Positions 3,734-22,189 of a stretch of DNA of 64,000 bases are shown here, in pieces; positions within the stretch are counted from its first letter, which is position 1, and every line of letters starts with the position of its first letter. The notes below the pieces were generated by a model. It made no database searches. It had not been told where the DNA came from and saw nothing but the letters and a program-made list of their open reading frames with translations. A program made the translations under genes and the position numbers. This DNA comes from an uncultured Eubacteriales bacterium (GTDB lineage Bacteria; Bacillota; Clostridia; Christensenellales; Aristaeellaceae). The DNA is taken from NCBI GenBank assembly GCA_902793605.1, contig CADBEB010000014.1, positions 3,265-67,264 on the forward strand, written 5' to 3'.

Positions 3734-3742
3734 TGTGATTCT

Positions 3743-5044: not shown

Positions 5045-5105
5045 TTGTCAATTGTATATGACAATATGTCATTATCTGTCCGTGTTGATTTGTCATTATC
5101 TGTCC
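5045..5105 (-). promoter_or_regulatory. operator-like repeats and putative promoter upstream of the SH3 gene
   Basis: Exact 15-bp direct repeat TGTCATTATCTGTCC at 5067-5081 and 5091-5105. Inverted repeat TTGTCA(5045-5050)...TGACAA(5059-5064). On the - strand, TTGTCA-16nt-TATATT lies just downstream of the repeats. Confidence 0.4.
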
Positions 5106-5129
5106 ATACTTTTATGATTCGTATCCGGG

Positions 5130-6563: not shown

Positions 6564-6690
6564 TTTTCGGTTCCTTCTTTCAAAAATCCTTTGGAGTACA
6601 GAAGGCCGGCAAAACGCTCAGCCGGCCTTCTTTTCCTTTCATACAGCCGCTGTTTCGCAAACGCAGGGGCAGCTGTCCTGCGGGCGGGGG

Positions 6691-7296
6691 TCAGTCGGTT
6701 ACGCTGACGGGATCGGAGCCATAGTCCTGATAGGCTTCAATGTCCAGCTGATTGGCTTTCACGTATTCCACAACCGCAACGCGCTGGTACTGATCCAGGA
6801 TGCTGTCCTCGGCAGCGCCGCTGCTCCGGAAATACATCTCTTCCAGTTCTTTATCTCCGTTGGCAAAGCGGACGATGTCCTCCGAATACTGTTCTCCGTC
6901 TCCGGCGCTTTCGAAGGACGCCACCTTCCAGGCACCGTCTTTCTTCTCAAGCTTCATGATGCCGGGGCATTCTCCGCCGGCGGTAACTTTCAGGATCTTT
7001 CCGTCTGCCTTATAGGCGAAAATCCAGAAGTTGCCGTAAACCGTAGCTTCCGTCTCATCTTCGTTTGTTTCTGCCTTCAGGATAACAGGCGTAGGAATCA
7101 GCACCCCGCCTTCCTCTATCGTGAAACCGAAGTCATTATTCAGCATATAGTCCACAACCGCCGCTCCGACAGGATCTTCATCCGCGAAAGGATACACGTA
7201 TGCCGGGAGAGCCGACCCCTCCGCGAGTGTGGCAGCTGCCAGCAGTATGAGAACCAGTGCCAGCATCATTGCAATCATCGGTTTTCTGTTGTTCAT
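6691..7296 (-). CDS. secreted/membrane-anchored hypothetical protein
   Basis: Start re-set to ATG 7296 (AAAAGGAGGTAACAAAT upstream), giving MNNRKPMIAMMLALVLILLAAATLAEG. The track start at 7356 has no RBS. Confidence 0.65.
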   Translation of the reverse strand: MNNRKPMIAMMLALVLILLAAATLAEGSALPAYVYPFADEDPVGAAVVDYMLNNDFGFTIEEGGVLIPTPVILKAETNEDETEATVYGNFWIFAYKADGKILKVTAGGECPGIMKLEKKDGAWKVASFESAGDGEQYSEDIVRFANGDKELEEMYFRSSGAAEDSILDQYQRVAVVEYVKANQLDIEAYQDYGSDPVSVTD

Positions 7297-7513
7297 ATTT
7301 GTTACCTCCTTTTGATTTCTGTCTGCAAAGACCACAGGCACCGACCCGTGTACCACTCTTATAAAAGTGCCTTGTCTTTGCCGGATCTTTTTTTATTCTA
7401 TACCAATTCCGGCTGCCGATCAACAAATGTGCCAGAATGTCAACATTTGTCTGTCCCGGTTTATGTTCCCGGTTTCCCGGCTGTTTTTGCGTGTGAAAAA
7501 AACTGAACACCGG

Positions 7514-7542
7514 TTGAAATTGTCGCCGGAATCAGACATAAT
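7514..7542 (+). promoter_or_regulatory. putative sigma-70 promoter for the SBP gene
   Basis: TTGAAA (7514-7519), 17 nt, CATAAT (7537-7542), about 50 nt before ATG 7591. Confidence 0.4.
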
Positions 7543-7590
7543 AGAATCAATCGGAACACAGGGACAAAATGCGAAAGGACGGATCTGGTT

Positions 7591-9174
7591 ATGAAAAAAA
7601 TGATGGCATTGCTGATTTCATTCATTCTTCTGCTTTCCGCTTCCGCTTTTGCGGACGGTGCGGAACCCGGCCTGCTGCGGACGGCGATCATCTACGACAT
7701 CTCCACCCTGGATGTCGCGGAGACCACGGACAACTACCTGATCCCGATGAATGTCTTTGACCGGCTGTTTGAAACGCGGCCCGCCGACGGCGCCTGCGAG
7801 GTGGTCAAGAGCCTGGTGACGGACTACTCCGTCAGCGCGGACGGCCTGACCTACGACTTCACCCTGCGGGATGGCGTCGTGTTCTCCAATGGCAGCGCGC
7901 TGACCGCGTCGGACGTGCAGTACAGCTTTGAGCGGCTGCTGAAAATCGCGAAGGATAACACCGACATCCCGCTGGAGATCGCGGGCGGCGAAGCGGTGAT
8001 GAAGGGCGAGGCGGATTCCCTTGAAGGATTCAGGATCACGGACGACACGCACTTCTCCATCACGCTGGCGGCGCCGAATGCGGGCTTCCCGGCGGAGCTT
8101 TCCGCCCCGGCCGCTTCCATCGTGGACGCGGAGACCACGGCTGCCGCAAAGAACTTCGGCAAAGATCCGGCGGACACCGTCGGCTCAGGTCCCTATATCG
8201 TGACGGAGTGGGTGAGCAACGATCATTATACGCTGGTATACAATGACAAGTACTGGGGCGCGGAACCCACCGTGAAGAAGCTCATCGTCAAGGTCATCGC
8301 GGACCCCAACACGCAGGACCTCATGTTCCAGAACGGCGAACTGGATATCATCGACCTGCAGAACCTGGACAGCGCCATCGTGGCGGGCACCTACAAGACG
8401 AAACCGGCGGACCGGCTGGTCAGTACCCCGAAGGTCGGTCTGACCTACCTGCTGATGAACGAGAACAACCAGTACCTGAAGGACGTGAAGGTGCGCAAGG
8501 CGATCGGCATGGCGATCGACGTTGATTTGTTCATCCAGGGCATTTACATGGGCGACGCCCAGAAGGAGAACTGCATCATCCCGACGGGTATCTGGGGGCA
8601 TAACGACGCACAACAGGGCTTCACCTATGATCCGGACGGCGCGAAAAAGCTGCTGCAGGAAGCCGGGTATGCTGACGGTGAGATCAAGTTCGAACTGGCG
8701 CTGGATTCCGGCGCGAACACCAGCCTCCAGCTGGTTTACGCCTCCATCAGCGACCAGCTGAAGAAGGTCGGGATCGAGGCGACGGTCGCGAGCTACGAGC
8801 ATTCCGCCTGGCTGGCGAAGCGCTCAAGCAGCGAGATGGATTCCTTCGTGGCCCGCTGGGGCATGGACTACAACGATCCGGCGAACATCATGTACACCTT
8901 CTTCGGCAGCGAGGAGAACTCAAAGGGCCGCAGCCTGAACTATGCCGACAAGGATGTCATCGCCCGGGTCGCCGCGGCGCGCTCCATTGTGGATGACGAC
9001 GCACGGCTCAAGGAATACCAGGCACTGGATGAGAAGCTGATCATGGAGGACGCAGCCTGGGTCCCGATGTATACCGAGATGCACCTGTGGTGCCTGGGCG
9101 ACCGGGTGGCCTCCTTCACTCCGCACTGGGCAGGATTCACTGATTTCTACGCCACGGATGTTGTTCTGAAATAA
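7591..9174 (+). CDS. ABC transporter substrate-binding protein, peptide/nickel (family 5) type, orphan
   Basis: 527 aa with signal peptide MKKMMALLISFILLLSASAFA. SBP_bac_5-like body. No adjacent permease or ATPase genes. Confidence 0.8.
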   Translation: MKKMMALLISFILLLSASAFADGAEPGLLRTAIIYDISTLDVAETTDNYLIPMNVFDRLFETRPADGACEVVKSLVTDYSVSADGLTYDFTLRDGVVFSNGSALTASDVQYSFERLLKIAKDNTDIPLEIAGGEAVMKGEADSLEGFRITDDTHFSITLAAPNAGFPAELSAPAASIVDAETTAAAKNFGKDPADTVGSGPYIVTEWVSNDHYTLVYNDKYWGAEPTVKKLIVKVIADPNTQDLMFQNGELDIIDLQNLDSAIVAGTYKTKPADRLVSTPKVGLTYLLMNENNQYLKDVKVRKAIGMAIDVDLFIQGIYMGDAQKENCIIPTGIWGHNDAQQGFTYDPDGAKKLLQEAGYADGEIKFELALDSGANTSLQLVYASISDQLKKVGIEATVASYEHSAWLAKRSSSEMDSFVARWGMDYNDPANIMYTFFGSEENSKGRSLNYADKDVIARVAAARSIVDDDARLKEYQALDEKLIMEDAAWVPMYTEMHLWCLGDRVASFTPHWAGFTDFYATDVVLK

Positions 9175-9183
9175 CCTGCACTG

Positions 9184-9224
9184 AAAAAGCCGGCAGAGTC
9201 ATTCTGCCGGCCTTTCTTTTGTTT
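9184..9224. terminator. bidirectional rho-independent terminator
   Basis: Stem GCCGGCAGA (9189-9197), loop GTCAT, stem TCTGCCGGC (9203-9211). Flanked by an A-run and a T-run, between convergent genes. Confidence 0.7.
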
Positions 9225-9268
9225 CCTGTGCGGGGATCCGCATCGCCTCTGTTCATATTCTGTCTGAC

Positions 9269-10207
9269 TCAGCCGTTTCCATCCTTCTCGGTCAAGTCGA
9301 CTGAGGTAATGGACAGGCTGCCGGAGGGAACGAATCCGCGGGCCGTCTGTCCGTCGATCGTGGTCTCGACATAATCCCACGCACCGTCATTGTACATCGT
9401 CGTCAGGTAAACCACCGTCTGTCCGGCAGATACGGTCGTCAGGGTGTTTCCGGTCAGAGCGGGATCATCGGTCACATTCACCGTCTCGAGCACTTCGCAG
9501 CTGCTGCCGTCCCAGACCAGCTGTCCCAGGTTGTCCTGCGCTCCCTTTTTGAACTTCGGGCTCCAGATGTACCCAACACGGTACTGTCCCGCATGGTTGG
9601 CTTCATACAGCATCAGCATCCAGCCGTTCTCCCAGCCCAGGCCATAGACGGCGCCGTTGGTGGAGCAGGTGGCTTTTCCGTTGTTCGCCCGGTAGGCGTC
9701 GATCGACGGCGCCGTAAAAACGGGGAGCTTCTGCTTGGCTGCCAGGTCCACATACTCAAAGCCCCGGGGCTTGTTCACGTTCGCAGCCGGCGGCTTTGGC
9801 ATGCCGATTCCGCCTTTGTTCGTCACGCCCTGGTCGCGCATATCCCTGCGTACCGCTTTGATCAGGTCAACATTCCGGTTCTCGATCGTTGAGCACTGGC
9901 TGTAGGCCTCGTGATGGTTGCTGGAGCTCTCGCTCTCGTTCGCGTGATACCATGGCATCTGATTGAACCAGTTGTAGCATCTGCTTCCGGTTTCAAACTT
10001 GTAGCCGTGCCGTGCGTAGATCTCGTTGAACGCGTACAGCAGCGTATCGTATCTGTATTCCCAGAGCTCGTCGTAGGTCAGCGCCCTGGTATCGCTGTCC
10101 GGGATGATATAGAGTGAGTCCGCGGCAGCAAATACCGGAACCAGCAGGCTGCCCAGCAGGACTGCCGACAGAAGGATGGCTGTGATGATCGTTTTTCGGG
10201 TTTTCAT
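9269..10207 (-). CDS. YARHG domain plus SH3-like domain secreted protein
   Basis: Start re-set to ATG 10207 (AAGGAGGAGATTTTC upstream), giving MKTRKTIITAILLSAVLLGSLLVPVFAAA. Literal YARHGYKF motif. C-terminal SH3-like GQTVVYLTTMYNDGAWDYVETTIDGQTARGFVPSGSL. Confidence 0.8.
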   Translation of the reverse strand: MKTRKTIITAILLSAVLLGSLLVPVFAAADSLYIIPDSDTRALTYDELWEYRYDTLLYAFNEIYARHGYKFETGSRCYNWFNQMPWYHANESESSSNHHEAYSQCSTIENRNVDLIKAVRRDMRDQGVTNKGGIGMPKPPAANVNKPRGFEYVDLAAKQKLPVFTAPSIDAYRANNGKATCSTNGAVYGLGWENGWMLMLYEANHAGQYRVGYIWSPKFKKGAQDNLGQLVWDGSSCEVLETVNVTDDPALTGNTLTTVSAGQTVVYLTTMYNDGAWDYVETTIDGQTARGFVPSGSLSITSVDLTEKDGNG

Positions 10208-10245
10208 GAAAATCTCCTCCTTGTAAATAATGTATGATGAATCCG

Positions 10246-11673
10246 TCACCTGACAGATTGCTTTACCGTATCAAGAAGCGCCCCGTAGAGGATCTTCCCG
10301 GCCTCATTGGTCGGGAACTCATCAATGACCTCGACCCTGAACGAGGGACGGACAACGCTGATCTTCTGCCGGATATAATCCTCAACGGCTTTTTTGTCCC
10401 CTTCGCTCAGGACGAAAATGACCAGAAGATCATCCACACCGGAACTCACGCACCGGACGTTAATCCCGTTCATGATCCTTTCATCGATCTCGTCGAGGCT
10501 GATCCGGTGGCCGAACATCTTGATCACCCGCTTCAGGCGCCCGATGATATACAGGAAGCCCTCCTCATCCCTTTCGGCGATATCGCCGGTCCGGAGCTCC
10601 CCGTGCCAGTCGTCTCCACGGCTGAGATCTTCACCGCTGGCAGCATACCCCAGGGCGACGTTTTTTCCGCGATAAACCAGTTCTCCCTGAACATGCTTCC
10701 CCTCGACAGGGTTTCCTTCGGCATCGATCAGTCTGATCTCCCCGTCCGGAACGGCGATCCCGACTGATCCCGGCTTCTCCAATGCTTTTTCAGCAGGCAG
10801 GTACGTGATGGCAGCCGTCGCCTCGCTCTGCCCGTACATAATGATGAAACGCTTGCCGTAATCCGCGGCATACTGTGCGAAATACCGCTGCAGGTTCGGG
10901 CTCAGTTTGGATCCGGCTTCGGTCATCAGCTTCAGATCGGGGAAATCGTCACAGAAGAAATCCATCTTATACAACATATCATAGGTTGTGGAAACGCCGT
11001 GAAAAGCCGTCACATGCTCGTTTTCAAACAGGTCCCAGAAATCCTCGTCCATGACCCCCGCCCGCGTGACGATCATCTTCGCGCCTTTCATCAGGTTGGC
11101 ACCGAAAATGGAAAGCCCGTAGGTATAGTTCAGCGGCAGCGCGGTGATGGTGCGATCTTTGTCCGTTATGTCCAGGTAATCCCCGAGCAGCTGTGCGTTA
11201 ACCCGTACATTCTCCCGGGACTGCCGGACAAATCTGACCGAGCCGGTGGAACCGGAGGTCGTCAGCAGCTGGCCGAGTCCCGGGTGCACCGTCCATGGCT
11301 CCGAATAGTTGGTTCGGAGCAGCACGTAGCTGTCAACCGTCCGGATCTCCGCCATGTTCGGATACTCGCCGCGCAGCGCGCGGGGAGCAAAGATCATCCC
11401 GGGACGGTAGGTATTCATGATCTCCCGGCGCATATCCCCGGGCATGCCCGCCGATGCCATCAGCATCGGATGTCCGCTGTTCAGCAGCGCGGCATATCCC
11501 GACAACGCGCCGATGCTGTTCTCGCACATCATCATCGTCAGTTCCCCGGGGCAGATCCCAAATAGCTGATCCTGAAGCGCTTCCAGTTCGTCGTAGCGTA
11601 TGGTAACGCCTGTATCGTCGATGAGCGCGGTGTTCCTGCCGAAGGCACTGAAATCCCAGACCCTGTCCATCAT
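10246..11673 (-). CDS. stand-alone adenylate-forming enzyme (DltA/NRPS A-domain-like AMP-ligase)
   Basis: Core motifs LLTTSGSTGSVRFV (A3), YGQSEATAAITY (A5), GELVYRGKNVALGY (A6), RTGDIAERDEEGFLYIIGRLKRVIKMFGHRISLDEIDE (A7/A8), PTNEAGKILY (A10). ATGA overlap with the upstream gene. Confidence 0.85.
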   Translation of the reverse strand: MMDRVWDFSAFGRNTALIDDTGVTIRYDELEALQDQLFGICPGELTMMMCENSIGALSGYAALLNSGHPMLMASAGMPGDMRREIMNTYRPGMIFAPRALRGEYPNMAEIRTVDSYVLLRTNYSEPWTVHPGLGQLLTTSGSTGSVRFVRQSRENVRVNAQLLGDYLDITDKDRTITALPLNYTYGLSIFGANLMKGAKMIVTRAGVMDEDFWDLFENEHVTAFHGVSTTYDMLYKMDFFCDDFPDLKLMTEAGSKLSPNLQRYFAQYAADYGKRFIIMYGQSEATAAITYLPAEKALEKPGSVGIAVPDGEIRLIDAEGNPVEGKHVQGELVYRGKNVALGYAASGEDLSRGDDWHGELRTGDIAERDEEGFLYIIGRLKRVIKMFGHRISLDEIDERIMNGINVRCVSSGVDDLLVIFVLSEGDKKAVEDYIRQKISVVRPSFRVEVIDEFPTNEAGKILYGALLDTVKQSVR

Positions 11674-12608
11674 CCGTTCCCTCCGTCTGCCTGTTCCAGC
11701 TTGCTTTTGATCAGGACAAGGCCGTCGTTGTAGGATTTCAGCCGCATCGCTTCGCGTCCCCGGATCGAGACGCTGAAGGCCTCCTCCAGCCGGCTGATCA
11801 GCGCCATATGCGCCACAGAATCCCAGCCGATATCGTGGTACCGGAAAGCGACCGGATTGAAGTCAATCCCTTCAAAGCAGGCGCTGAACACATCCCAGTA
11901 CCGTTCCGCGATACTCTTCGGCTGCGCTTCTTCTTTCTTTTCCGACGACTCAAGCGCCTTGCTCGGCGCGAAAACATCATTCTGCACACCTTCGCCGGAG
12001 ATCCGTGCCGGGTTGCCGATCACCGTAACACTGTCCGGCACATCCCCAAACACAGCGGCGCCCAGCGCCACAACGCTGAAAGAACCGATTTGAATACGAT
12101 CTTTCAGCAGCGCACCGGCACCGATGAACGCATTCTCCCCGATCACGGTATGCCCGCCGACAAAGGCGTTGACACCCAGCCGGGTATGGTCGCCCACGAC
12201 CGCGTCATGTCCGACGCAGGCATTCAGTGAAAGATAGCAGTTCCTGCCGACTTTGGCACGCGAGCCGACAAACACTCCCTGGCAGACAGCCGTCCCTTCC
12301 CCCACTTCGGCGTCGGGACTGATCTGCGCGGAGCTGTGCACAAGCCGGCCGCCGGTGTACCCCGCCCGGGTCATCCGTTCAAACGCCTCCAGCCTGAACT
12401 TCGGCTCCCCGATAGCGATAACAAAGCGTACCCCGTCCGGCCTGAACTGCGCCCGGAAATCCTGAAACGAATAGACCGGACAGCCGGCAAGTTCCTTCGT
12501 TTTCGCATGGTCGTCGATGAAGACGATCCCGGACCACTCACCGCTTTCCTCCGCGATCATTCTGAATTCGCGGCCGATCGCCCCCGCGCCGAATAAAGCA
12601 AGGATCAT
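11670..12608 (-). CDS. NeuD/PglD-like left-handed beta-helix acyltransferase fused to a C-terminal carrier-protein (ACP/PCP-like) domain
   Basis: GGAGGAAAG RBS. N-terminal Rossmann-like MILALFGAGAIGREF, then hexapeptide repeats (VGRNCYLSLNACVGHDAVVGDHTRLGVNAFVGGHTVIGENAFIGAGAL). An acidic linker leads into HDIGWDSVAHMALISRLEEAF, which carries a phosphopantetheine-type DS motif (about 11670-11915). Confidence 0.8.
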   Translation of the reverse strand: MILALFGAGAIGREFRMIAEESGEWSGIVFIDDHAKTKELAGCPVYSFQDFRAQFRPDGVRFVIAIGEPKFRLEAFERMTRAGYTGGRLVHSSAQISPDAEVGEGTAVCQGVFVGSRAKVGRNCYLSLNACVGHDAVVGDHTRLGVNAFVGGHTVIGENAFIGAGALLKDRIQIGSFSVVALGAAVFGDVPDSVTVIGNPARISGEGVQNDVFAPSKALESSEKKEEAQPKSIAERYWDVFSACFEGIDFNPVAFRYHDIGWDSVAHMALISRLEEAFSVSIRGREAMRLKSYNDGLVLIKSKLEQADGGNG

Positions 12609-12648
12609 GTCTTTCCTCCGTTCTGCTGTGTGTTTTGATCCATCTGGA

Positions 12649-13455
12649 TCATTTTGTTTCCAGCGATTCTCCCCAGGCTGCTTCGATTTCTTTCCTTACA
12701 ATGCTCATCTGTCCGCGTTCCTTCGCGCTGTACAGCGGTTTTCCGTCCGCATCGCGTCCGGTGATCAGCCGGCTGAGGCATCCCTGTTCCCGGACGATCT
12801 TCCTGCTCTCCGGATAAACCAGTTCGAACGCCATGCAGCAGTGGGAGATACACACGTCGAAGCGGGTCTTCCGGAGGTCTCTCGGAACACAGCGATGCTG
12901 AAGTACACACTCCATCACCGCGTCACCGGCCCCCTCCGTTTCCTGCAGCAGTCCCTTGCTCGTTCCGGCTCGTTCTTCAAAGGAGAGCTCCGTCACAACG
13001 CGGAAGATGTCCGCCTTGTCCGCGTCCCGGATCAGGTCGCAGAAGCGCCGTGTTTCTTCGTCCTGATCCCCGGGCAGGGTGAGCTTGTTGTGCAGCCGGA
13101 TGGCCGTTTCCAGGAGCGCCAACCGGTCCGGTGAGAGCCCCTGAGCGGGGAATTCATGAATCAGGCCGTCTTTGAACAACAGATCCGCGCCGAATTCCGC
13201 GTGGTCCACCGAAACGGAATCGACGAACGTTCCGTACCGGCGGACCTGCTCAAAGCGCCCGATGTCGTGAAGCAGGCCCAGGAACCAGGCAAAGGCTGCG
13301 TCGTCGTCATCCACGCGCAGGCTCACCGCGATCCGCTCGCAGTTTCCTGCAACCCGCAGGGTATGCTCGATCTTGTGCCGGATCATGGAATTGTCCGGAT
13401 CATAATGGGATGTGTAGGCATAAAAGGCTGCCTCGGCTTGCCTCCTGTCGATCAT
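12649..13455 (-). CDS. HD-domain phosphohydrolase family protein
   Basis: H...HD signature (IEHTLRV...LLHDIGRFEQ...DHAEFG...RDADKADI). ATGA overlap with the ABC gene stop. Confidence 0.8.
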   Translation of the reverse strand: MIDRRQAEAAFYAYTSHYDPDNSMIRHKIEHTLRVAGNCERIAVSLRVDDDDAAFAWFLGLLHDIGRFEQVRRYGTFVDSVSVDHAEFGADLLFKDGLIHEFPAQGLSPDRLALLETAIRLHNKLTLPGDQDEETRRFCDLIRDADKADIFRVVTELSFEERAGTSKGLLQETEGAGDAVMECVLQHRCVPRDLRKTRFDVCISHCCMAFELVYPESRKIVREQGCLSRLITGRDADGKPLYSAKERGQMSIVRKEIEAAWGESLETK

Positions 13456-15593
13456 TCGATATCCTCCCCTTCCATATCACGGATGGCCTGCTCAAAGTCT
13501 TCATACCGCATAAGCTTTCCCTGTTCGATCCTGCATATGGTCTCCGCGCGGCGCAGCGTGTTGATCCGGTGGGCCACCATGATGACTGTGCAGCTGCCCA
13601 TCATCGCGTCAATGGCCTCCTGTACCTGCTGTTCGCTGACAGTATCCAGGGCGCTGGTGGCTTCATCCAGCAGGATGATCTTCGGTTTCCGGAGAAGCGC
13701 CCGCGCTATGGAGATCCGCTGCCGCTGTCCGCCGGAAAGGTTTTTGCCGTTCTCAAGAATCGGGGTGTTCAGTCCCTCCGGCAGCGACTCGACGAGATCC
13801 TCCAGTCCGACCCGGCGGATGACGTCCATGACGGTTTCGGTACTGATATACTGCAGCCCGTAAACCAGGTTATCCCACAGCGTACCGGAAAACAGCACCG
13901 TCTGCTGCGGCACCACCGCGATATTCCGGCGGTAAGCCGTCTTTTCCAGCGTGTCCAGGTTGATCCCGTCGATGAGGATCTCCCCCTGCTGGATATTATA
14001 CATCCCCAGGATCAGGTTCAGGATCGTCGTTTTCCCTTCTCCGGATTTCCCGACAAAAGCAATGCTTCCCCCGGCCGGCACGCGGAAACTGATCCCCTTC
14101 AGGACGGGGTCCTGATCCGCCTCATAGCCGAAGGTCACCTGCCTGAACTCGATCTCGCCCTGTACAGGGGAGGGCAGCAGTACGGTTCCGTTCTTTTCCA
14201 GATCCCCCGCGTACAGGATTTCGTTCACGCTCTTCAGGCTGTCATATCCCTGGGTGATCATCGGCACCGAATCCAGCATCCGCTGCACATTGCTGATGAT
14301 CATCTCAAAGATGGACTGAAACAGCACCAGCGTACCGACTTCAATATGTCCGGTCGCCGTCAGCAGGGCGGCAAAACTGAGGGAAAGCAGGCGAAGCCCC
14401 TGGAAAACCCCGTAGGTAACGTTGTTGACGCTCACAGTCTGCCGGTCGTAAAGCACCGCCGCCCGCTGCGCGCTGCGAACCTTCGCAAGGATGCTCCTGT
14501 ATTCTGTTTTCGCCAGGCCGTGGGCTCGGTTCAGGCCCTCCATTTCCAGCATTTCCTTGACGGCGGCGCTGACCTGCTCATTCTGCTTGCGCATGCCGGC
14601 CCGCCTGTCCTGCATGGGGCCCGTGAAACGGCGCAGCAGGAAGATCACCGCGGGGATGATCGCGGCATAGAAAGCCAGCATCAGCGGGAATTTCATCAGC
14701 GCGACCACGATGATGAACACGACATCCTCGCTCAGGTACAGGACCTCCATAAACCGGTCGTAGATCAGCATCTGAATGAACTGGACGTCGGAAACCAGTT
14801 TGGAAAGCACCACGCCGCTCTGCGTCCCGCTGTGGAAGCGCATCGAAAGCACCTGCAGCTTCTGGACAAGCGCCATCCGGAAGCCGGCTTCCACAGCCCT
14901 GGTGAACCGGCGGTAATACCGGCTGTCCAGCCAGTAGCAGATCAGGTTGACGGACAGCGATACCAGCGCCATCAGGATATTCAGGTATACAGGCCCGGTG
15001 AAGAAGGCGCCGGTCTCCGTCACGATGTTGATAATATTGGAAACGAAGACGGGCAGCATCAGGGCGCCCAGGTGTTTCAGCAGATGGATAAAAACCGAAA
15101 GCGCAAAGAAGCCCTGATGCCTGCGCGCAATGTATCGCAGCACGTCCGTCGGCTGATGCGGTGCTGCAGGATCAGCGTTCCGGTAGTACCCATAGATCTC
15201 TTCGGTCAGATCAAATGTGTTGCTTTTTCCGCCATATATGCTGTACAGATTGATACCGTTCACATACCGGTAGTTGTAATGATCAGTGTATTGTTCCAGC
15301 AGGCAATCGTTGATCTGCCTGCCAGTGTCGTTCTTTTCCGCTTCCGGCTTCGCGGGGATTTCATCCGCCCGTTTCCCCCGGGCCCGGATTTCGATGTGTT
15401 TGAATAACAGGCCTTTTATGGATACGCTGATTTCAGGGCACCCAGTATTCAACAGCCGAAGCAGCAGTTCCTCACAGATCAGCGGGCAGGCCGGCGTTCC
15501 CGGATCGCCGGGGAACGACGCGGCAAACTGTTCAGCCAGTTCCACCGCCGCCGGGATCTCCGATATTCTGGTCACCCTGACCCGAATGCCCAT
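13452..15593 (-). CDS. ABC exporter (TMD-NBD fusion) with an extra N-terminal cytoplasmic domain of about 165 aa
   Basis: Start re-set to ATG 15593 (GGAGG about 7 nt upstream). The track ORF runs to 16388 and overlaps a real + strand gene. Six-TM type-1 exporter core, Walker A GKSGEGKTT, signature LSGGQRQRISIARAL, Walker B ILLDEATSALD. Confidence 0.85.
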   Translation of the reverse strand: MGIRVRVTRISEIPAAVELAEQFAASFPGDPGTPACPLICEELLLRLLNTGCPEISVSIKGLLFKHIEIRARGKRADEIPAKPEAEKNDTGRQINDCLLEQYTDHYNYRYVNGINLYSIYGGKSNTFDLTEEIYGYYRNADPAAPHQPTDVLRYIARRHQGFFALSVFIHLLKHLGALMLPVFVSNIINIVTETGAFFTGPVYLNILMALVSLSVNLICYWLDSRYYRRFTRAVEAGFRMALVQKLQVLSMRFHSGTQSGVVLSKLVSDVQFIQMLIYDRFMEVLYLSEDVVFIIVVALMKFPLMLAFYAAIIPAVIFLLRRFTGPMQDRRAGMRKQNEQVSAAVKEMLEMEGLNRAHGLAKTEYRSILAKVRSAQRAAVLYDRQTVSVNNVTYGVFQGLRLLSLSFAALLTATGHIEVGTLVLFQSIFEMIISNVQRMLDSVPMITQGYDSLKSVNEILYAGDLEKNGTVLLPSPVQGEIEFRQVTFGYEADQDPVLKGISFRVPAGGSIAFVGKSGEGKTTILNLILGMYNIQQGEILIDGINLDTLEKTAYRRNIAVVPQQTVLFSGTLWDNLVYGLQYISTETVMDVIRRVGLEDLVESLPEGLNTPILENGKNLSGGQRQRISIARALLRKPKIILLDEATSALDTVSEQQVQEAIDAMMGSCTVIMVAHRINTLRRAETICRIEQGKLMRYEDFEQAIRDMEGEDIE

Positions 15594-15881
15594 CCTGATG
15601 CCTCCGTTTGTAAACAAGTCTGTCACATCTGTTAGTTTACCATATTCATTGGCTATTTCAACAGGACATTCATCCGGAAAAGGCCAGTGCAGCCGCTGCC
15701 GGATCCCGTTGACGATGACGAAAAAACAGGATTTGACGTAAAAGTATTGCTTTTCTGCTTCATTCAGATATGGTATGATGTGTTCAAAGCAAGAGAACAG
15801 GCGGCGACCGGAAAGCAGGAACGCTTTCACATTCGTTTCGATTACTGACAGATACTCATCGGGAAAGAAGGCGATTGCATA

Positions 15882-16829
15882 ATGAAGCGCATACTGGCCG
15901 GGTGGCTGGCCGTAATGCTCCTTTTTGCGGCGGGCATCACGCTGGCAGAAAACCCGGGAGAAGAGAACACCGTCAGCATTGAAGAATCCCTGGTTTCCGG
16001 GGAAGGCATGGATCCGGGCTCCACGGAGCAGAACGTCCGTATGATCCAGGGGCTGCTGAAGAATGAGGACATCCGGGAGATCCTGAAAAACCCGGAAGTG
16101 AAGTCCGTCCTTTCGGATGTTATAAGCAAGATCCTGGTCTGGATGGTCCGGAACAGGGAAGTCACCATGAAGATCCTCACCGAGATGGGCGTCAGTGAGG
16201 CTGACCGGAAAAGTGTCGAAAAGATCTGGGACAGCCTCGAGCGCATCAATGCCTCCAATCAGGAATACCTGGAAACCGATGACGGCAAACAGCTTGCGGC
16301 TGAATATGCCGCCGTTAAAAGCGATCCGGATATTATCGAAGCCGTAAAGGACTTCAGAATGCTGTCCTCCTCCGAGGACCTGGAACATCTGCTGAAGGTG
16401 CTTGGTGAGGCGGTGGCAGCCGACAAATCAAACGATGAAATGGAAAACGGCAGGCTGACCCAAGCCGTCATGAGCAGGGAGATTGACAATAAGACCTTTG
16501 TCGGCAACATCATCCTTAAGATCATGCATGTTCTGGATCAGAGCCCCTGGGTGCAGAAATCAGCTCCGAAACTGGCGAATAACGAAAACCTCATGAAATT
16601 CCTGAACCACCTGGCCAAGGGATCTCCGGAACAGGATAAGCTGATCCGGACCGAGCTGCAGCTGATCCTGGGCGACCGGGAGGTCAACCACTTTATCCAG
16701 AAAGTCCTCCGGGATGGCCATGCGCTGTTCAAAGCCCTGGACAATCCATCTGAACCGGCTCCGGAACCGGAAAACAAAGGACAGGAAAACCCGGAACACG
16801 ATAATATCGTTGAGGAGGCTGCCCCATGA
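15882..16829 (+). CDS. secreted hypothetical protein, helical and acidic, no recognised family
   Basis: Signal peptide MKRILAGWLAVMLLFAAGITLA. Protein-like composition. Its stop overlaps the ATG of the next gene (ATGA at 16826). Confidence 0.7.
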   Translation: MKRILAGWLAVMLLFAAGITLAENPGEENTVSIEESLVSGEGMDPGSTEQNVRMIQGLLKNEDIREILKNPEVKSVLSDVISKILVWMVRNREVTMKILTEMGVSEADRKSVEKIWDSLERINASNQEYLETDDGKQLAAEYAAVKSDPDIIEAVKDFRMLSSSEDLEHLLKVLGEAVAADKSNDEMENGRLTQAVMSREIDNKTFVGNIILKIMHVLDQSPWVQKSAPKLANNENLMKFLNHLAKGSPEQDKLIRTELQLILGDREVNHFIQKVLRDGHALFKALDNPSEPAPEPENKGQENPEHDNIVEEAAP

Positions 16830-19279
16830 GCGATAAAAGCATTCAGGCAAGGCCTGACGTCCCGGCGGGACTGGTATTCTTCGAGGCCCATGAAAAACCC
16901 CGGCAGTATGTGATCTTTGACAAGGCGCTGATCAAAGGCCGGCAGGAGATGGACGTTTTCACCCCCTCCGGGCTCCAGCTGACCTATCCTTTCCTGGACG
17001 AGGAACAGTGCGAGATCCGCTTTGAGAATGGGAAATGGCTTTACAAAAACCTGAGCGAGAACGTGTTCTCCTTCGTCGGCGGCAAGCTCCTGCCCTGCGG
17101 GGCGGAACAGGAACTGAAGGACAGCATGGTCATCCGCCTGTCCAACGACCGGATGCTCACCGCGGTCTTCCTGAAGGAATTCGCCTCCTCCACCGACTGG
17201 CAGATCATCAACATGGACGACGGCCGCCACACGGTCGTCATCGAAAACGAGGCGTGGGAAGAAGGCAATTCAGCGCTCACCCTGGAGTATGAGAACAGCC
17301 GCTGGCAGCTGAAGGACATCGGCGTCACCGCCCTGCTGCTGAACGGGCAGCCGCTCCGCGAGCCGACCGCCCTGCAGTTTGACGACTGCCTGCAGATCGG
17401 CGAAACCCGCTTCATCTTTGAAGGCTCCGGCATGCTCTACGGCGTCCATTCCCGGCAGGGCGGACTGAGCATCGCCATCGACGAGCGGACCGTCAAGAAC
17501 GCGATGAAGAAATACACCCTCCTCAAGGACATCCGCCTGTCCATCGAACCGGGCAACATGGTCATGATCCTGGGCGGATCCGGCGCGGGCAAAAGCACTT
17601 TCGTCAACGCTGTCACAGGATATGAAAAAGCCAAGGCCGTGATCACGGAAGGCGGTCTCGACTACTATAAACAGTACGACCAGGTCAAGCACCGGATCGG
17701 TTTCGTCCCCCAGGAAAACCTGATGCGCGAGGAAGATACGGTCCGGATGACAGTCAGCAATGCCGCGGATCTCCGGCTTCCCGCCTCGATGTCCCAGGAG
17801 GAAAAAGCCCGGAAGGTCCGGATGGCGCTGGAAACCTTCGGTCTCGCCGGCCGGGAGGATACGCTGGTCAGCAAGCTCTCCGGCGGACAGAAGAAGCGCC
17901 TTTCCATCTGCACGGAGTTCGTGGCAAGCCCCAACCTGTTCATCCTGGATGAACCCGACTCCGGCCTGGACGGCATCATGGCCCGCGGTCTGATGGAAAA
18001 CCTGCGGCTGATCGCCTGCCAGGGAAAGATGGTCCTGGTCATCACCCACGCACCGGACCGGGTTGCAAACCTGTTCGACAAGGTAATCGTGCTCGCCAAG
18101 GGAACGGAGTCCAGGATCGGCCAGCTGGCCTTCTATGGCGGGATCCGGGAGGCTAAGGACTTTTTCGGAACCGACTCCCTGGAGAACGTCGTCAAGCGGA
18201 TCAACGCCGTGAACGAGGGCGGCGAAGGCCGGGCGGACGAGTTCATTGAGAAGTACAAGGCCTATGCCGCGGAACGGGACGCCATGGACAGGGACGACTT
18301 CCGCGAAGCCGGTGCGGAACAGGAGGAAGAATCCGTCACGGACGTGGATGTGAGCATCCGCTACAAGAGCCGCCTGGGACAGATTCCCATTTCTTTCGGC
18401 AAACATCTCCGGATGTTCATCAACGAGGGGAACTGGAAGGTCCTTCCCCTGTCGGCGATCATCGCCTACCTGGTGGTCTATGTTATCGGCAAGCGGATGT
18501 TCATCAACATGGAAGGTACCTCCTACGCCGCGTTTGCCATCACCTGCGTGTGTATCTGGAACGGCGTGTTCAATTCCATCCAGGTCGTCTGCAAGGAGCG
18601 CGGGATCATCAAGCGGGAGCACCGGGCCGGCCTGCACATCTCTTCCTACCTGTTGTCCCACATGGCCTACCAGGCGATCATCAGCCTGATCCAGACGATC
18701 ATCATGGTCGCCATCTTCCAGATCTTCGGCGTGTACATGCCCTCCAAGAGCGTAATCACCGGCAGCTTCCTGGTGGACCTGTCCATTACGATCTTCCTGA
18801 TCACCTATGCCGCGGATATGCTGGGCCTGATGATCTCCTGCATCGTGCACACGCCCATGACCGCCATGACTGTGATGCCCTTCGTGCTGATCGTCCAGCT
18901 GGTGTTCGCCAACTTTGTCATCCCGCTGAACGCTTTCGGCCAGAAGGTCTCCAACATCACCATCAGCAAGTGGGGAATCCAGGCCATCTGCGCGGTATCA
19001 GACTACAACAGCCAGGAGTCGACCGTACTCCTGACTGCGCTGAACACCATGAACAACCGGGATCCCGAGAGCCTGGTCTCCCGGATCCAGCGGGTGCTCT
19101 CCATTGATGAAGTCAACCACAAGGTGGGACAGTTGACCGCCGCCCAGCTGCAGAAAGCCAGCTATGCCTTCACGACAGAAAACGTCCTCAAGAACTGGGG
19201 CATCCTCCTTGGCTTTACGCTGCTCTATGTGGTGATCGGTCTTATATTCCTCGAACAGGTTGACCATGACAAGCGCTAG
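16826..19279 (+). CDS. ABC transporter fusion: two FHA-like modules, ABC ATPase and ABC-2 (ABCG-like) permease
   Basis: N-terminal about 200 aa with FHA-like strands (EIRFENGKWLYKNLSENVFSFVGGKLL; RWQLKDIGVTALLLNGQPL...LQIGETRFIFEG). Walker A GGSGAGKST and LSGGQKKRLSICTEF...FILDEPDSGLD. C-terminal 6-TM ABC-2 region. Confidence 0.85.
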   Translation: MSDKSIQARPDVPAGLVFFEAHEKPRQYVIFDKALIKGRQEMDVFTPSGLQLTYPFLDEEQCEIRFENGKWLYKNLSENVFSFVGGKLLPCGAEQELKDSMVIRLSNDRMLTAVFLKEFASSTDWQIINMDDGRHTVVIENEAWEEGNSALTLEYENSRWQLKDIGVTALLLNGQPLREPTALQFDDCLQIGETRFIFEGSGMLYGVHSRQGGLSIAIDERTVKNAMKKYTLLKDIRLSIEPGNMVMILGGSGAGKSTFVNAVTGYEKAKAVITEGGLDYYKQYDQVKHRIGFVPQENLMREEDTVRMTVSNAADLRLPASMSQEEKARKVRMALETFGLAGREDTLVSKLSGGQKKRLSICTEFVASPNLFILDEPDSGLDGIMARGLMENLRLIACQGKMVLVITHAPDRVANLFDKVIVLAKGTESRIGQLAFYGGIREAKDFFGTDSLENVVKRINAVNEGGEGRADEFIEKYKAYAAERDAMDRDDFREAGAEQEEESVTDVDVSIRYKSRLGQIPISFGKHLRMFINEGNWKVLPLSAIIAYLVVYVIGKRMFINMEGTSYAAFAITCVCIWNGVFNSIQVVCKERGIIKREHRAGLHISSYLLSHMAYQAIISLIQTIIMVAIFQIFGVYMPSKSVITGSFLVDLSITIFLITYAADMLGLMISCIVHTPMTAMTVMPFVLIVQLVFANFVIPLNAFGQKVSNITISKWGIQAICAVSDYNSQESTVLLTALNTMNNRDPESLVSRIQRVLSIDEVNHKVGQLTAAQLQKASYAFTTENVLKNWGILLGFTLLYVVIGLIFLEQVDHDKR

Positions 19280-19309
19280 TCTGCAGCAACAGATCCCCGC
19301 CCGGGCATA

Positions 19310-19350
19310 AAAATCCGGAGCTGTTCGAAATGAACGGCTCCGGTATTTTA
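19310..19350. terminator. bidirectional terminator between convergent genes
   Basis: Stems CCGGAGC (19315-19321) and GCTCCGG (19337-19343), flanked by AAAAAT upstream and TATTTTAT downstream. Confidence 0.55.
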
Positions 19351-19360
19351 TGTCCTTTGA

Positions 19361-19603
19361 TTACTTCTTGATCCAGAGGTACTCGCCGGTACGGATCATG
19401 TTGGTACCCTTGTTGATGTGGGGATTCCACTCACGGATCTTGTGCCAGTCCTTGATGCCGTAATGGTTGGCAATCCGGATCAGGGTATCGGTCGCTGTGA
19501 CCTTGTGCTGGATCCAGCCGGGCTTGTCTTTCTCGGGCTCGAAGTGGATCTTGCCGCCGGAGACTTCTTCCAGTTCATTAAGATTCAGTTCATTGTTATC
19601 CAT
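19361..19603 (-). CDS. 80-aa protein: double-glycine (GG) leader fused to a single LysM domain
   Basis: Start re-set to ATG 19603 (AGGAGG 8 nt upstream). Product is MDNNELNLNELEEVSGG followed by KIHFEPEKDKPGWIQHKVTATDTLIRIANHYGIKDWHKIREWNPHINKGTNMIRTGEYLWIKK. Confidence 0.8.
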   Translation of the reverse strand: MDNNELNLNELEEVSGGKIHFEPEKDKPGWIQHKVTATDTLIRIANHYGIKDWHKIREWNPHINKGTNMIRTGEYLWIKK

Positions 19604-19740
19604 GGTTTTATCCTCCTGATATTCATTTTCGTCATCTGCAAAGCCTTCATCGGTCAATGCATCAGTGTATACGAAGCTGACATGCCGCGTGGCAGCAGGA
19701 AACAGCATTTCTCTTCAATTTTTTTCAGACTGCCGTCCGG

Positions 19741-19911
19741 TCATTCCTTTTTAACGTCGTTTATGGCCATGATGCGGCAGATCGCCGTCAGGACGCCGCC
19801 GATGACCACAGCGATCCAGCACCTGGACCAGTCGTTGGCGATCAGGCCCCATACGAGCATAACGCAGACGGAAAGGATCGGAATAATCGCGGTCAATTTC
19901 TTGTAATCCAT
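19741..19911 (-). CDS. 56-aa small membrane protein (two predicted TM helices), not in ORF track
   Basis: ATG 19911 follows AGGAGGAAAACAAA. Product MDYKKLTAIIPILSVCVMLVWGLIANDWSRCWIAVVIGGVLTAICRIMAINDVKKE, stop TGA at 19741-19743. Confidence 0.55.
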   Translation of the reverse strand: MDYKKLTAIIPILSVCVMLVWGLIANDWSRCWIAVVIGGVLTAICRIMAINDVKKE

Positions 19912-20110
19912 TTTGTTTTCCTCCTATGTTTATGCAGCTGTTGCTTTATCCCTATTATGCACGGAAACCAGCCTGAGCGCAAGCTATTTTGCCCGAAAGC
20001 CGAAAAGGCAGAGAAAAAGCACGGACGGCTGGATGGAAAGCCTGTTTTCCGGTATAATGGTCCCGTTTCCGAATCATACAGGAAATCTTGTACAGGAAAG
20101 GAAGATCTCC

Positions 20111-21367
20111 ATGTCCTTTGAACGTATCGGTATCCGTCCCGCGCAGATCCTGCTGCCCGCCCCCGGTGTCCGGCCGGAGACCTGGGCCTGCATTGCCTGC
20201 GATCAGTATACCTCCGAACCGGCCTACTGGGAAAAGGCCTTCGCTGCCGCGGGGGATTCTCCGTCCGCCCTGAAGCTGATCCTCCCGGAATGCAGCCTGA
20301 AGGACAGCGAAAAGCTGATCCCCGGCATTCACCGGACCATGGCGGAATACCTTGAGCAGGGCTTGCTGCTCCCTGCGGTGGATCCCGGCTTCATTCTCTG
20401 CGAGCGGACGATCGCTTCCGGCAGCCGCCTGGGCCTGGTCTGCGCGGTCGATCTGGAGCAGTATTCCTTCGAAAAGGGATCCCTGCCGCTGGTTCGCCCC
20501 ACGGAACAGACCATCGCCTCCCGGCTGCCTCCCCGGCTGGTCATCCGCCGCGGCGCACCGGTCGAGCTGACCCATATCATGATCCTGATCGACGATCCGG
20601 ACCGCACCGTGCTTGAACCCCTGCAGGCAGAGAAGGCTTCCTTCCGGAAGCTCTACGATTTTGACCTGATGATGAACGGCGGACATCTGGCCGGCTGGGC
20701 ACTGGATACCCCGGAAGTGCTGGAGCAGGTCGACCGGAGCCTGAACGCCCTCATGGACACCAGGGGCGAGCATCCGCTCCTCCTGGCCGTAGGCGACGGA
20801 AACCACAGCCTGGCAACCGCCAAGGCCTACTGGAACGAGATCCGGGAAGGCCTGACCGCAGAAGAACGGGAAAACCATCCCGCGCGCTTCGCCCTGTGCG
20901 AGATCGTAAACATCCACGACAATGCCCTGCTCTTTGAGCCGATCCACCGAATCGTGACCGGTACCGGCCGCGAAGCCCTGATAGCTGACTGGCGGGAGTA
21001 CGCGGCGGAACGCGGCATGTCGCTGCAGGCTGCCGGAGAAGGCCATCGCTTCACGGTCATCGCCGCGGACGGCGAAGAAACGGTCGTGGTCGCTTCTCCG
21101 GAAGGCGCCATTCCCTGTGAAACAGTCCAGAAGTTCCTGGACGATTTCCTCTCCCGGCATCCGGAAGCGGAGATCGACTACATCCACGGGGAAGACTCCC
21201 TGCGGACGCTGGCCGGTAAGCCGGGAACCGTAGGCTTGCTGCTGCCGGAGATCGACAAGCATTCGTTCTTCGCGGATGTGGAGCGGCTGGGCGTCCTGCC
21301 GAGGAAAACCTTCTCCATGGGCGAGGCGGACGAGAAGCGCTTCTACATGGAAGCAAAGAGAATATGA
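20111..21367 (+). CDS. DUF1015 family protein
   Basis: Start re-set to ATG 20111, giving MSFERIGIRPAQILLPAP...WACIACDQYTSEP. Central DGNHSLATAKAYW motif is typical of DUF1015. Confidence 0.8.
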   Translation: MSFERIGIRPAQILLPAPGVRPETWACIACDQYTSEPAYWEKAFAAAGDSPSALKLILPECSLKDSEKLIPGIHRTMAEYLEQGLLLPAVDPGFILCERTIASGSRLGLVCAVDLEQYSFEKGSLPLVRPTEQTIASRLPPRLVIRRGAPVELTHIMILIDDPDRTVLEPLQAEKASFRKLYDFDLMMNGGHLAGWALDTPEVLEQVDRSLNALMDTRGEHPLLLAVGDGNHSLATAKAYWNEIREGLTAEERENHPARFALCEIVNIHDNALLFEPIHRIVTGTGREALIADWREYAAERGMSLQAAGEGHRFTVIAADGEETVVVASPEGAIPCETVQKFLDDFLSRHPEAEIDYIHGEDSLRTLAGKPGTVGLLLPEIDKHSFFADVERLGVLPRKTFSMGEADEKRFYMEAKRI

Positions 21368-21414: not shown

Positions 21415-21459
21415 CAAAACAACAGGACTCTGGCATTTTCGCCAAAGTCCTTTGTTTTT
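21415..21459. terminator. bidirectional terminator
   Basis: CAAAACAACAGGACT (21415-21429) pairs with AGTCCTTTGTTTTT (21446-21459), between convergent genes. Confidence 0.55.
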
Positions 21460-22189
21460 ATGTCAGTTCGAAGGTAACCTTCACGCAGCGGGAGAGGAAG
21501 CCGATCTCATTGATGGGAACGGTTTCCGCTTCGTATTCACGGTCGTAGGACTGGAGCAGGACCCTGTGGTCGTCCAGGATCTTGACCTTGCGGAGATAGC
21601 GGTGCTCGTTGTAGTTCATCAGCATCACCGCGCCGTCCACCGGACTCTGGGCCGGAACCGTCAGCACGATGTCACCCTTGTGGATGCGGAAGCCCCGCAT
21701 GCTGTCGTCCGGCGCCAGGTAAAAGAAAACCTTGTCCGGATTGGCGCCTTCGATGCGCCCGTTCTCCACCGGCACCAGCTGATAACCGACGGGTTTCATC
21801 ACGGCGTTCATCACCGGCACCCGCTTCAGTACGCTTTGCAGCGCGTCCAGCCAGACGCTGCCGGCCACGCCCTCGTCCTTTTCCTCGGTGGAGGCTGCCA
21901 GTTCCGCTTCCTTCTTCGGCGGTTTCTTCACCGCCTGCGCCAGGCGCGGCTGGACCTGCGCCAGGTCAACGGTCGCGGCGATATCGTCCAGCGTGAACTC
22001 CGCTTCGGTCTGCTGCTTCAGGCCCATGCTCTTCAGGATCCGCCGGGCCTGGTCATCCGCAATGATCCGCGTGCCGGCTTCTACCGCCAGCAGGTAGCTT
22101 TCGCTGACGCCGCACTTTTTCGCTACCTGTTTCGGGGTCAGTTTCTGCCTGATCCGCTCCGTGCGGATCAGGTCTCCCAGTCTGCTCAT
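21458..22189 (-). CDS. XRE-family HTH regulator with C-terminal S24 (LexA/CI-like) peptidase domain
   Basis: N-terminal HTH (LTPKQVAKKCGVSESYLLAVEAG). C-terminal YLAPDDSMRGFRIHKGDIVLTVP...RYLRKV resembles the S24 Ser/Lys dyad region. Confidence 0.75.
   Translation of the reverse strand: MSRLGDLIRTERIRQKLTPKQVAKKCGVSESYLLAVEAGTRIIADDQARRILKSMGLKQQTEAEFTLDDIAATVDLAQVQPRLAQAVKKPPKKEAELAASTEEKDEGVAGSVWLDALQSVLKRVPVMNAVMKPVGYQLVPVENGRIEGANPDKVFFYLAPDDSMRGFRIHKGDIVLTVPAQSPVDGAVMLMNYNEHRYLRKVKILDDHRVLLQSYDREYEAETVPINEIGFLSRCVKVTFELT

Follow-up and report, generated by a model that had tools for sequence, protein, structure and literature searches.

The window analysed here, a stretch of 64,000 nucleotides of contig CADBEB010000014.1 from an uncultured Eubacteriales bacterium, encodes on its minus strand an 80-residue protein that probably represents a precursor of the class II bacteriocin type, or more generally a substrate of peptidase-containing ATP-binding cassette (ABC) transporters (PCATs), in which a short leader would direct the export of a single wall-binding LysM domain. 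The first 17 residues fit the consensus of a double-glycine (GG) leader, and we refer to the protein and its relatives as GG-LysM. The coordinates of the gene and of all related features are collected in Table 1.

A double-glycine leader conserved across the family

The precursor reads MDNNELNLNELEEVSGG/KIHFEPEKDKPGWIQHKVTATDTLIRIANHYGIKDWHKIREWNPHINKGTNMIRTGEYLWIKK, the slash marking the predicted cleavage point after Gly17. The start at ATG 19603, which the first-pass annotation had chosen, holds, as AGGAGG is found 8 nt upstream and homologues elsewhere begin at the equivalent Met. The leader that follows from it (MDNNELNLNELEEVSGG) is 17 residues long and acidic, with a net charge of -5.5 and no hydrophobic segment that could act as a Sec-type signal, and displays all the consensus residues that had been named (L-12, E-8, L-7, V-4, G-2 and G-1). 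The expectation that homologues would keep the GG motif and the hydrophobic positions was likewise borne out: among 191 GG-LysM proteins, these positions are conserved in 97-100%, with Gly at -1 and -2 in 100%, Val, Ile or Ala at -4 in 97%, Met or Leu at -7 in 98%, and Leu, Met, Val or Ile at -12 in 98%, to which can be added Glu at -8 (91%) and at -13 (95%). Both Gly residues are also invariant in our two alignments, A1 (65 sequences, used for the metagenome scan) and A2 (13 diverse sequences). At the sequence level, the family leader fits the canonical LSxxELxxIxGG pattern.

The conserved leader positions are each encoded by several synonymous codons in 110 distinct genes (GGC, GGA, GGT and GGG for Gly-1; at -4, codons of Ile and Ala besides the four of Val), which argues for selection on the protein sequence of the leader. 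Leader length varies among members (15-25 residues) with the GG register remaining fixed, and the AlphaFold2 (AF2) model displays a short leader helix at residues 8-14. A relaxed GG-leader pattern applied to the six frames of the window gave four matches, of which the GG-LysM open reading frame (ORF) is the only one with a ribosome-binding site (RBS).

The check by hidden Markov models that had been proposed for the 80-residue product gave a divided answer, with the LysM part recognized (25.9 bits for PF01476, gathering cutoff 20.9) and the GG-leader models all below their cutoffs. Since the scores with the curated GG-leader models are below threshold, the leader assignment rests on family conservation and context. 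Sub-threshold matches to GG-leader families recur among the 65 members of A1, with bact_IIb_cerein in 26, bacteriocin_sig in 11 (at E<=0.1), CTB in nine, and CCRG-2 and VP1 in seven each. We could not find any Nif11 or NHLP match for the window protein in Pfam or NCBIfam.

A complete LysM fold as cargo

The predicted mature part is a protein of 63 residues devoid of Cys, with a computed isoelectric point (pI) of 9.8 and a net charge of about +5 to +6, and the family median pI of this part is 10. As the first-pass annotation had stated, it consists of essentially one LysM module (residues 33-79), which is preceded by a segment conserved at the mature N-terminus of the family, with consensus KxHFxPExDKxGW. 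KIHFEPEK is the predicted semi-tryptic mature N-terminus, to be set against MDNNELNLNELEEVSGGK.

The AF2 model computed with the family alignment has a mean predicted local distance difference test (pLDDT) score of 83.7, with values of at least 90 for residues 21-80, and the segment following the predicted cleavage site is ordered. It displays a beta-alpha-alpha-beta arrangement (strand 30-34, helices 41-48 and 54-59, strand 75-79), and on this model the cargo is a complete LysM fold. Consistently, only LysM domains are among the top-ranking PDB structures in Foldseek (MltD, P60 of T. thermophilus, a chitinase LysM, plant receptors and Ecp6), and sequence-profile matches in the PDB are likewise to LysM only. 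Weak matches to the YneA model were obtained for 44 of the 65 members, and to SafA for 51, and the LysM part also has a weak PHROG endolysin match.

Family distribution, tandem arrays and paired subtypes

Homologue searches were word-indexed over 5.8 billion proteins, and many of the contigs recovered are short. We identified 124 close homologues of about 80 residues, 54-88% identical to the window protein, which are named in their sources only as 'hypothetical' or 'LysM domain-containing'. The exact window protein is present on many rumen metagenome contigs and metagenome-assembled genomes (MAGs), including the NCBI MAG GCA_045131135.1. An exhaustive search followed by a second profile search extended this to a wider superfamily of 432 matches, mostly of 75-110 residues, in which the GG motif is invariant and the layout is again a GG leader, a short basic linker and a LysM domain. 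All retrieved loci come from uncultured Clostridia of the ruminant gut (cattle, sheep, goat), labelled in their sources as Christensenellales, Oscillospiraceae, Lachnospiraceae or 'Clostridia bacterium' MAGs. No relative was found in IMG/VR, in 50,697 GenBank phage records (INPHARED) or among PLSDB plasmids.

Several copies often occur together. Tandem arrays of five to six diverged paralogues were found in GCA_045113475.1 as well as in a Lachnospiraceae MAG, and a further array in RUG11935. The centre of the Lachnospiraceae array is occupied by the gene of a 186-residue protein that matches nothing in Pfam and has a signal peptide of lipoprotein-like type, and the array lies alongside a type I-E CRISPR-Cas locus. 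In at least four lineages, two subtypes occur as adjacent A/B pairs: type A resembles the window protein, and type B has the form GG/RGGxxKKxP...NDITAGxYIYVP, with a LysM score of 33.4 bits. In the window, type A is represented by one gene and no such pair occurs; a tblastn match of the type B leader at 39036-39122 was discarded as a chance match in a shadow ORF.

Some copies are found close to phage-like genes. In L001-L003 (L numbers designate the retrieved loci), the GG-LysM gene abuts a capsid-portal-terminase module. In L004-L006 and L026 (GCA_017447185.1, about 1-17000), a one-strand cluster of phage-like capsid, tail-tube, sheath and baseplate genes is broken by genes of the opposite strand, coding for GG-LysM, a 59-residue Bacteriocin_IIc-like peptide, phosphatidylserine (PS) decarboxylase, a NUDIX protein and a HepT/MNT toxin-antitoxin pair. 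This cluster looks like a domesticated or moron-rich element.

A homologue beside a peptidase-ABC export cassette

In one genome (GCA_045546035.1, locus L036), an 85-residue family member, P0281, shares 49% identity with the window protein (E = 5e-24). Its gene follows that of a 76-residue long-leader peptide and converges on a cassette of three export genes. One cassette gene matches TIGR03797 (715.1 bits, cutoff 709.4), another matches the C39-containing TIGR03796 (891.1 bits, cutoff 853.3) as well as PF03412 and carries the motif QMEALECGAAC, and the third codes for a HlyD-like N-terminal protein. By these profile matches, the cassette is an NHLP/NHLM bacteriocin export system. That a 49%-identical homologue adjoins a C39 PCAT cassette supports the leader-dependent, Sec-independent export put forward in the first-pass annotation.

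The substrate genes of the GG-LysM family usually lie dispersed, at a distance from the transporter. Such an arrangement is consistent with the layout of NHLP/Nif11 systems, in which precursor genes are reportedly many and for the most part remote from the transporter.

Three ABC exporters of the window were considered as candidate PCATs and rejected. A 713-residue exporter (13452-15593, minus strand), about 4 kb from the GG-LysM gene, would fit by its length as a cryptic PCAT, but the evidence is against it: its N-terminal extension of roughly 160 residues has no counterpart in Pfam or NCBIfam, and the protein remains below every NCBIfam cutoff. This unmatched extension occupies the position of the C39 domain in PCATs. 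The genes that follow code for an HD protein, an acetyltransferase, an AMP-binding protein and a YARHG protein, and in some strains a 56-residue gene is called upstream of the exporter (L007/L009, 13831-14001). The exporters at 43947-45791 and 45788-47611 are ordinary half-transporters of roughly 600 residues with no peptidase domain.

A promoter-like motif and a 5' hairpin shared with other genes

Most genes of the family, in many lineages, are preceded by a motif of the form TGCCAYC-N13/14-CGTAT(C/A)AAcAGGTG, usually with an A-tract before it. This analysis combined pattern matching with single-sequence folds, and started from 28 motif instances before being extended to 69 distinct 5' untranslated regions (UTRs). 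In the window, the motif comprises TGCCAC (19694-19689), 15 nt, CGTATA (19673-19668) and then ...TGATGC. It scores 23.7 bits in a scan of the 64 kb with a position weight matrix (PWM), in which nothing else reaches 14 bits, and falls inside the 137-nt spacer between the GG-LysM ATG and the upstream ORF of a 56-residue membrane protein, here called TM56, as well as downstream of ATG 19708. This position supports both the 80-residue product and a promoter separate from TM56. A simple two-gene TM56-LysM operon is therefore doubtful, as the LysM gene appears to have a promoter of its own, and a consensus scan of 19200-20200 for a sigma-70 promoter that might serve such an operon found none. The -10-like CGTAT resembles promoters of extracytoplasmic function (ECF) sigma factors.

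The motif is not restricted to GG-LysM genes. It also precedes genes for long-leader peptides whose leaders end in AAG or AGG (e.g. ...EELNLDEMEFVSAAG/MLKKHDKKEI), a 67-residue family of unknown function, a 90-residue membrane protein and a secreted YARHG protein, and because it precedes these other gene types as well, it would mark a regulon. The long-leader peptides have short basic tails after AAG/AGG, as in MEKYLANCFDYQKFEN...EELNLDEMEFVSAAG/MLKKHDKKEI, and belong to no Pfam family; one of their motif-bearing genes adjoins the PCAT cassette in L036. They could be pheromone-like PCAT substrates.

Directly after the motif lies a hairpin whose stem sequence varies by lineage with pairing maintained and whose loop is A-rich (69 distinct instances, e.g. 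L016, L023, L031 and L037), and in many UTRs a second small hairpin, GCSSC-ACW-GSSGC, is found just before the RBS. The window hairpin, identical to that of L008, is weak (-7.6 kcal/mol by RNAfold) and has stronger counterparts in other lineages. No known RNA element was recovered from Rfam, either for the window region at a permissive E-value or for the loci of five relatives at gathering thresholds. The 5'-UTR hairpin may be an undescribed cis-regulatory or stabilizing RNA element.

The adjacent membrane protein

The first-pass annotation had also pointed to a 56-residue ORF directly upstream on the same strand, with an AGGAGG RBS and two hydrophobic helices. This description holds: TM56 (MDYKKLTAIIPILSVCVMLVWGLIANDWSRCWIAVVIGGVLTAICRIMAINDVKKE) has its AGGAGG at 19925-19920, 8 nt before the ATG, two hydrophobic helices (maximum 19-residue Kyte-Doolittle mean of 2.51), Lys-rich ends and a conserved loop, NDWS. 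We identified 16 homologue clusters at 66-98% identity, and more distant homologues (44-48%) that in other lineages lie close to GG-LysM genes; neither Pfam nor NCBIfam gave a match at threshold. A holin function was considered and set aside, as only a Pfam match at E = 0.094 and an unannotated PHROG were obtained.

In relatives, TM56 is consistently accompanied by genes for a LytTR regulator and a DUF3021 membrane protein, arranged as TM56-LytTR-DUF3021. In two lineages (L011-13, L043), this set is followed closely by the GG-LysM gene, and in one lineage (L040) the set is present with no LysM gene in the available flank. These operons are preceded by ACCGTTCAGAC-12 bp-ACCGTTCAGAC direct repeats of 9-10 bp (L011-13, L040-45), a hallmark of LytTR regulatory systems that control their own expression. 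In the window and in L001-3, the LysM gene or genes follow TM56 directly, but there is no LytTR, no DUF3021 and no such repeat; the window species has kept TM56 alone of this system. LytTR regulatory systems control bacteriocin genes in S. mutans (PMC6193735).

The proposal that TM56 serves as an immunity or accessory protein gained no support, since it has no family match, is absent from most GG-LysM loci and has LytTR and DUF3021 as its consistent neighbours. Co-occurrence of GG-LysM homologues with this small membrane protein was accordingly found at some loci, but not at most. TM56 is a real gene, and its context is better read as that of a putative part, or a leftover, of a membrane-sensing regulatory module.

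Proposed mechanism and role

From these data the following sequence of events can be proposed. Transcription would start near 19660 from a specialized, possibly ECF-sigma-like promoter (-10 CGTAT), and the same promoter would drive other GG/AG-leader peptide genes in relatives, making the gene part of a regulon. A PCAT encoded elsewhere in the genome would recognize the leader helix, cut after Gly17 and export the unfolded cargo. The resulting 7.6-kDa product, with KIHFEPEK at its N-terminus, would then fold outside the cell and bind peptidoglycan. We infer the cleavage, the export, the peptidoglycan binding and the activity of the product.

As to its role, the most likely one, judging from sequence and context, would be that of a non-catalytic, wall-binding competition factor resembling bacteriocins; we favour it on account of the acidic leader combined with a cationic mature part, the arrays of diversifying members, the A/B pairs, which recall the loci of two-peptide bacteriocins, and the LytTR systems in the neighbourhood. 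Almost as likely is a self-directed role in wall modulation or signalling.

Several observations weigh against an exported bacteriocin-like precursor. In agreement with the first-pass annotation, we could not find any C39-peptidase ABC transporter in the window: its three ABC exporters with transmembrane domains have no C39 domain by Pfam or NCBIfam, and tblastn of a genuine C39 domain against the window gave nothing at E<=1. No PCAT is present in the few kb (about 5-10 kb) added beyond the window ends, and among the 108 fetched loci, covering 10 kb around the GG-LysM gene, a C39 domain occurs in L036 only. The window protein scores 12.9 bits with TIGR01847 (bacteriocin_sig; cutoff 15.7), a model of only 15 positions that is weak evidence in either direction, and 16.3 bits with TIGR03949 (lactobin A/cerein 7B class IIb; cutoff 21.5), where the alignment is confined to the leader (residues 4-19). 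In addition, no recognizable immunity gene regularly accompanies the family members, and we know of no killing mechanism for a lone LysM domain. A literature search for double-glycine or PCAT with LysM gave incidental co-mentions only, with no description of a GG-leader LysM protein. Finally, the phage-like structural clusters around some copies could indicate a different biology.

Alternative explanations

Among the alternatives, the one with an appreciable though minor chance of being correct keeps the same export and cleavage but makes the product a self-directed wall factor or signal and not a weapon, for example coating or masking the cell's own peptidoglycan, modulating autolysins or cell separation, or reporting density. 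LysM-only proteins such as YneA and the fungal LysM effectors usually bind rather than kill, which fits this possibility, as do the weak YneA and SafA matches, the lack of a consistent immunity gene, the presence nearby of genes for wall proteins (YARHG, SH3_3, PG_binding_1), one YARHG gene carrying the promoter motif, and the inclusion in the regulon of short peptides with long leaders that resemble pheromone precursors. However, A/B pairs and tandem arrays that diversify are more often a mark of competition factors, and the matches to YneA and SafA fall well short of the cutoffs and reflect the LysM domain only. We consider it unlikely that the N-terminus resembles a GG leader by convergence and is left uncleaved, the protein staying in the cytoplasm or being released otherwise, by a holin-like action of TM56 or by cell lysis. 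The scarcity of PCATs near the gene in almost all contexts, the sub-threshold scores of the curated GG-leader models and the very weak holin-family match of TM56 would all agree with this, but against it stand the conservation of GG and of positions -4, -7, -8 and -12 in about 190 proteins, despite variable leader length, the PCAT cassette next to one relative and the promoter motif shared with other GG/AG-leader peptides; moreover, LysM has no known cytoplasmic ligand, and TM56 is missing at most loci.

Two further alternatives have much less in their favour. The gene might be a phage or prophage moron that controls lysis or superinfection by wall binding and was brought into chromosomes by prophages, as could be suggested by its position on the opposite strand within the capsid/tail cluster of L004-L006 and L026 and next to the capsid-portal-terminase module of L001-L003, and by the weak PHROG endolysin match of the LysM part. 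Yet the searches of IMG/VR and of the GenBank phage records recovered no relative, and the neighbours in the window and at most loci are ordinary chromosomal genes, so that we regard this origin as very improbable. Least credible of all, and close to negligible, is that the real product is the 115-residue ORF starting at ATG 19708, within which the 'leader' would be internal. The frame is indeed open from there, and one metagenomic gene call (P0117) uses that start, but 19708 has no RBS, as against the AGGAGG at 8 nt for 19603, the upstream extension is not conserved in homologues of other species, and the promoter-like motif lies downstream of 19708.

Other features of the window

Between the GG-LysM gene and the convergent gene of an 817-residue transporter with FHA and ABC-2 domains (FHA-ABC2) lies a terminator-like hairpin, followed by TTTTT on the minus strand. 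At 15882-19279 (plus strand), a 315-residue protein with no family match overlaps the start of this transporter (ATGA). The same transporter is also found near the GG-LysM pair of L020, and the linkage may not be accidental. The window is G+C-rich and holds many long antisense ORFs. Those at 51589-54045 and 54056-55876 (both plus strand), which have no Pfam match, are shadow ORFs, the real genes there being on the minus strand and coding for leucyl-tRNA synthetase and a GT2 glycosyltransferase, as deduced from the matching contig L106.

Table 1. Coordinates of the GG-LysM gene, its surroundings in the window, and related features at other loci (own numbering of each locus)
Feature	Position	Strand	Evidence or remark
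GG-LysM precursor gene, 80 codons plus stop	19361-19603	-	ORF and translation; stop codon 19361-19363
Shine-Dalgarno AGGAGG	19612-19617	-	direct sequence reading; 8 nt before ATG 19603
Double-glycine leader, residues 1-17	19553-19603	-	family alignments, position frequencies, codon use
Predicted mature protein, 63 residues	19364-19552	-	sequence and computed properties
LysM domain, residues 33-79	19367-19507	-	Pfam PF01476, AF2, Foldseek
TM56, two-helix membrane protein of 56 residues	19741-19911	-	ORF, RBS, homologues
Promoter-like motif	19657-19694	-	PWM scan, motif comparison across lineages
Weak 5'-UTR hairpin	19637-19661	-	RNAfold
Bidirectional terminator-like hairpin, 13-bp stem, T-runs on both strands	19315-19343	both	terminator scan
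Tandem GG-LysM arrays	L030-L035 about 7600-10520; L037 9322-11270; L025 8134-10823		
A/B pairs	L001 9723-10243; L014 10001-10540; L018 6388-6907; L020 1682-2210		
Promoter-like motif, other instances	L016 6119-6156; L023 9885-9922; L031 4100/7535/9556; L036 9630		
Long-leader AAG/AGG peptide genes	L031 4189-4365; L033 1560-1742; L036 9735-9965; L037 8914-9207		
TM56-LytTR-DUF3021 operons	L011 8722-9899; L040 2946-4058; L043 175-1400		

Implications

Small membrane-active peptides, pheromones and precursors of ribosomally synthesized and post-translationally modified peptides (RiPPs) are the cargo for which double-glycine leaders and peptidase-ABC exporters are known. If our interpretation is correct, a folded peptidoglycan-binding cargo would widen the known range of these exporters, with a family that is so far limited to the ruminant gut, and a lone LysM domain acting as effector, toxin or signal would point to a novel mode of action on the bacterial wall. 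It is conceivable, though we hold it only tentatively, that these proteins constitute a new class of PCAT-exported, non-catalytic 'LysM bacteriocins' that would inhibit competitors by peptidoglycan binding alone, be deployed as A/B pairs or arrays, and be controlled as a regulon by an alternative promoter and a 5'-UTR hairpin, with the short GG/AG-leader peptides maybe acting as inducing pheromones. The family would also make available, from uncultured Clostridia of the rumen, a delimited group of proteins to consider as candidate antimicrobials or wall modulators, and the promoter motif and 5'-UTR hairpin offer a handle for finding the rest of the regulon and its regulator.

Comparison with known systems

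GG-LysM proteins share with class II bacteriocins and other PCAT substrates (lactococcin A/LcnC, ComC/ComA, and CtA/PCAT1 of Clostridium thermocellum) a short acidic leader of consensus type, a cationic mature part, the absence of a Sec signal, and an organization in arrays and pairs. Their 63-residue cargo is within the size range that known PCATs handle, that of CtA being about 66 residues. Unlike class II bacteriocins, the cargo is a folded carbohydrate-binding domain and not an amphipathic or hydrophobic membrane-active peptide, GxxxG motifs are lacking, and no transporter or immunity genes are adjacent at the window locus. The features of class IIb two-peptide bacteriocins, namely a TIGR03949 score above cutoff and a small GxxxG peptide, were not found in the window protein.

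With NHLP/Nif11 systems, the family has in common that the GG-LysM gene of L036 adjoins an NHLM export cassette (TIGR03794/03796/03797). It differs in the leader, which is of 15-25 residues instead of an NHLP or Nif11 domain of roughly 70-80, and in the cargo, which is Cys-free, appears unmodified, and has no modification enzymes encoded nearby. The occurrence in relatives of LytTR and DUF3021 genes and of 12-bp-spaced direct repeats upstream of GG-LysM recalls the HdrRM/BrsRM systems of Streptococcus mutans, although in these relatives the operon is headed by TM56, an additional small membrane protein that is not known from the systems of S. mutans.

YneA, the cell-division suppressor of Bacillus subtilis, similarly combines a small targeting segment with one LysM domain and acts on the wall, as is predicted here for GG-LysM, but it has an N-terminal transmembrane segment in place of a GG leader. 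A YneA-like SOS division inhibitor was considered for the window protein and rejected, as NF010723 gives 12.5 bits against a cutoff of 60 and there is no transmembrane segment. An SOS link through the XRE/S24 repressor encoded at 21458-22189 was also dismissed: a DUF1015 gene lies in between, and the repressor gene directly follows branched-chain ABC transporter genes with a gap of 6 nt.

The fungal LysM-only effectors Ecp6 and Slp1, the former of which is among our structural matches, are also small proteins made of LysM only that bind glycans non-catalytically, as we predict for GG-LysM; they differ in being eukaryotic, Sec-secreted, rich in disulfides, composed of several LysM domains and directed to chitin. 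Peptidoglycan-binding domains have been discussed as possible non-catalytic toxins (review, PMC3482391).

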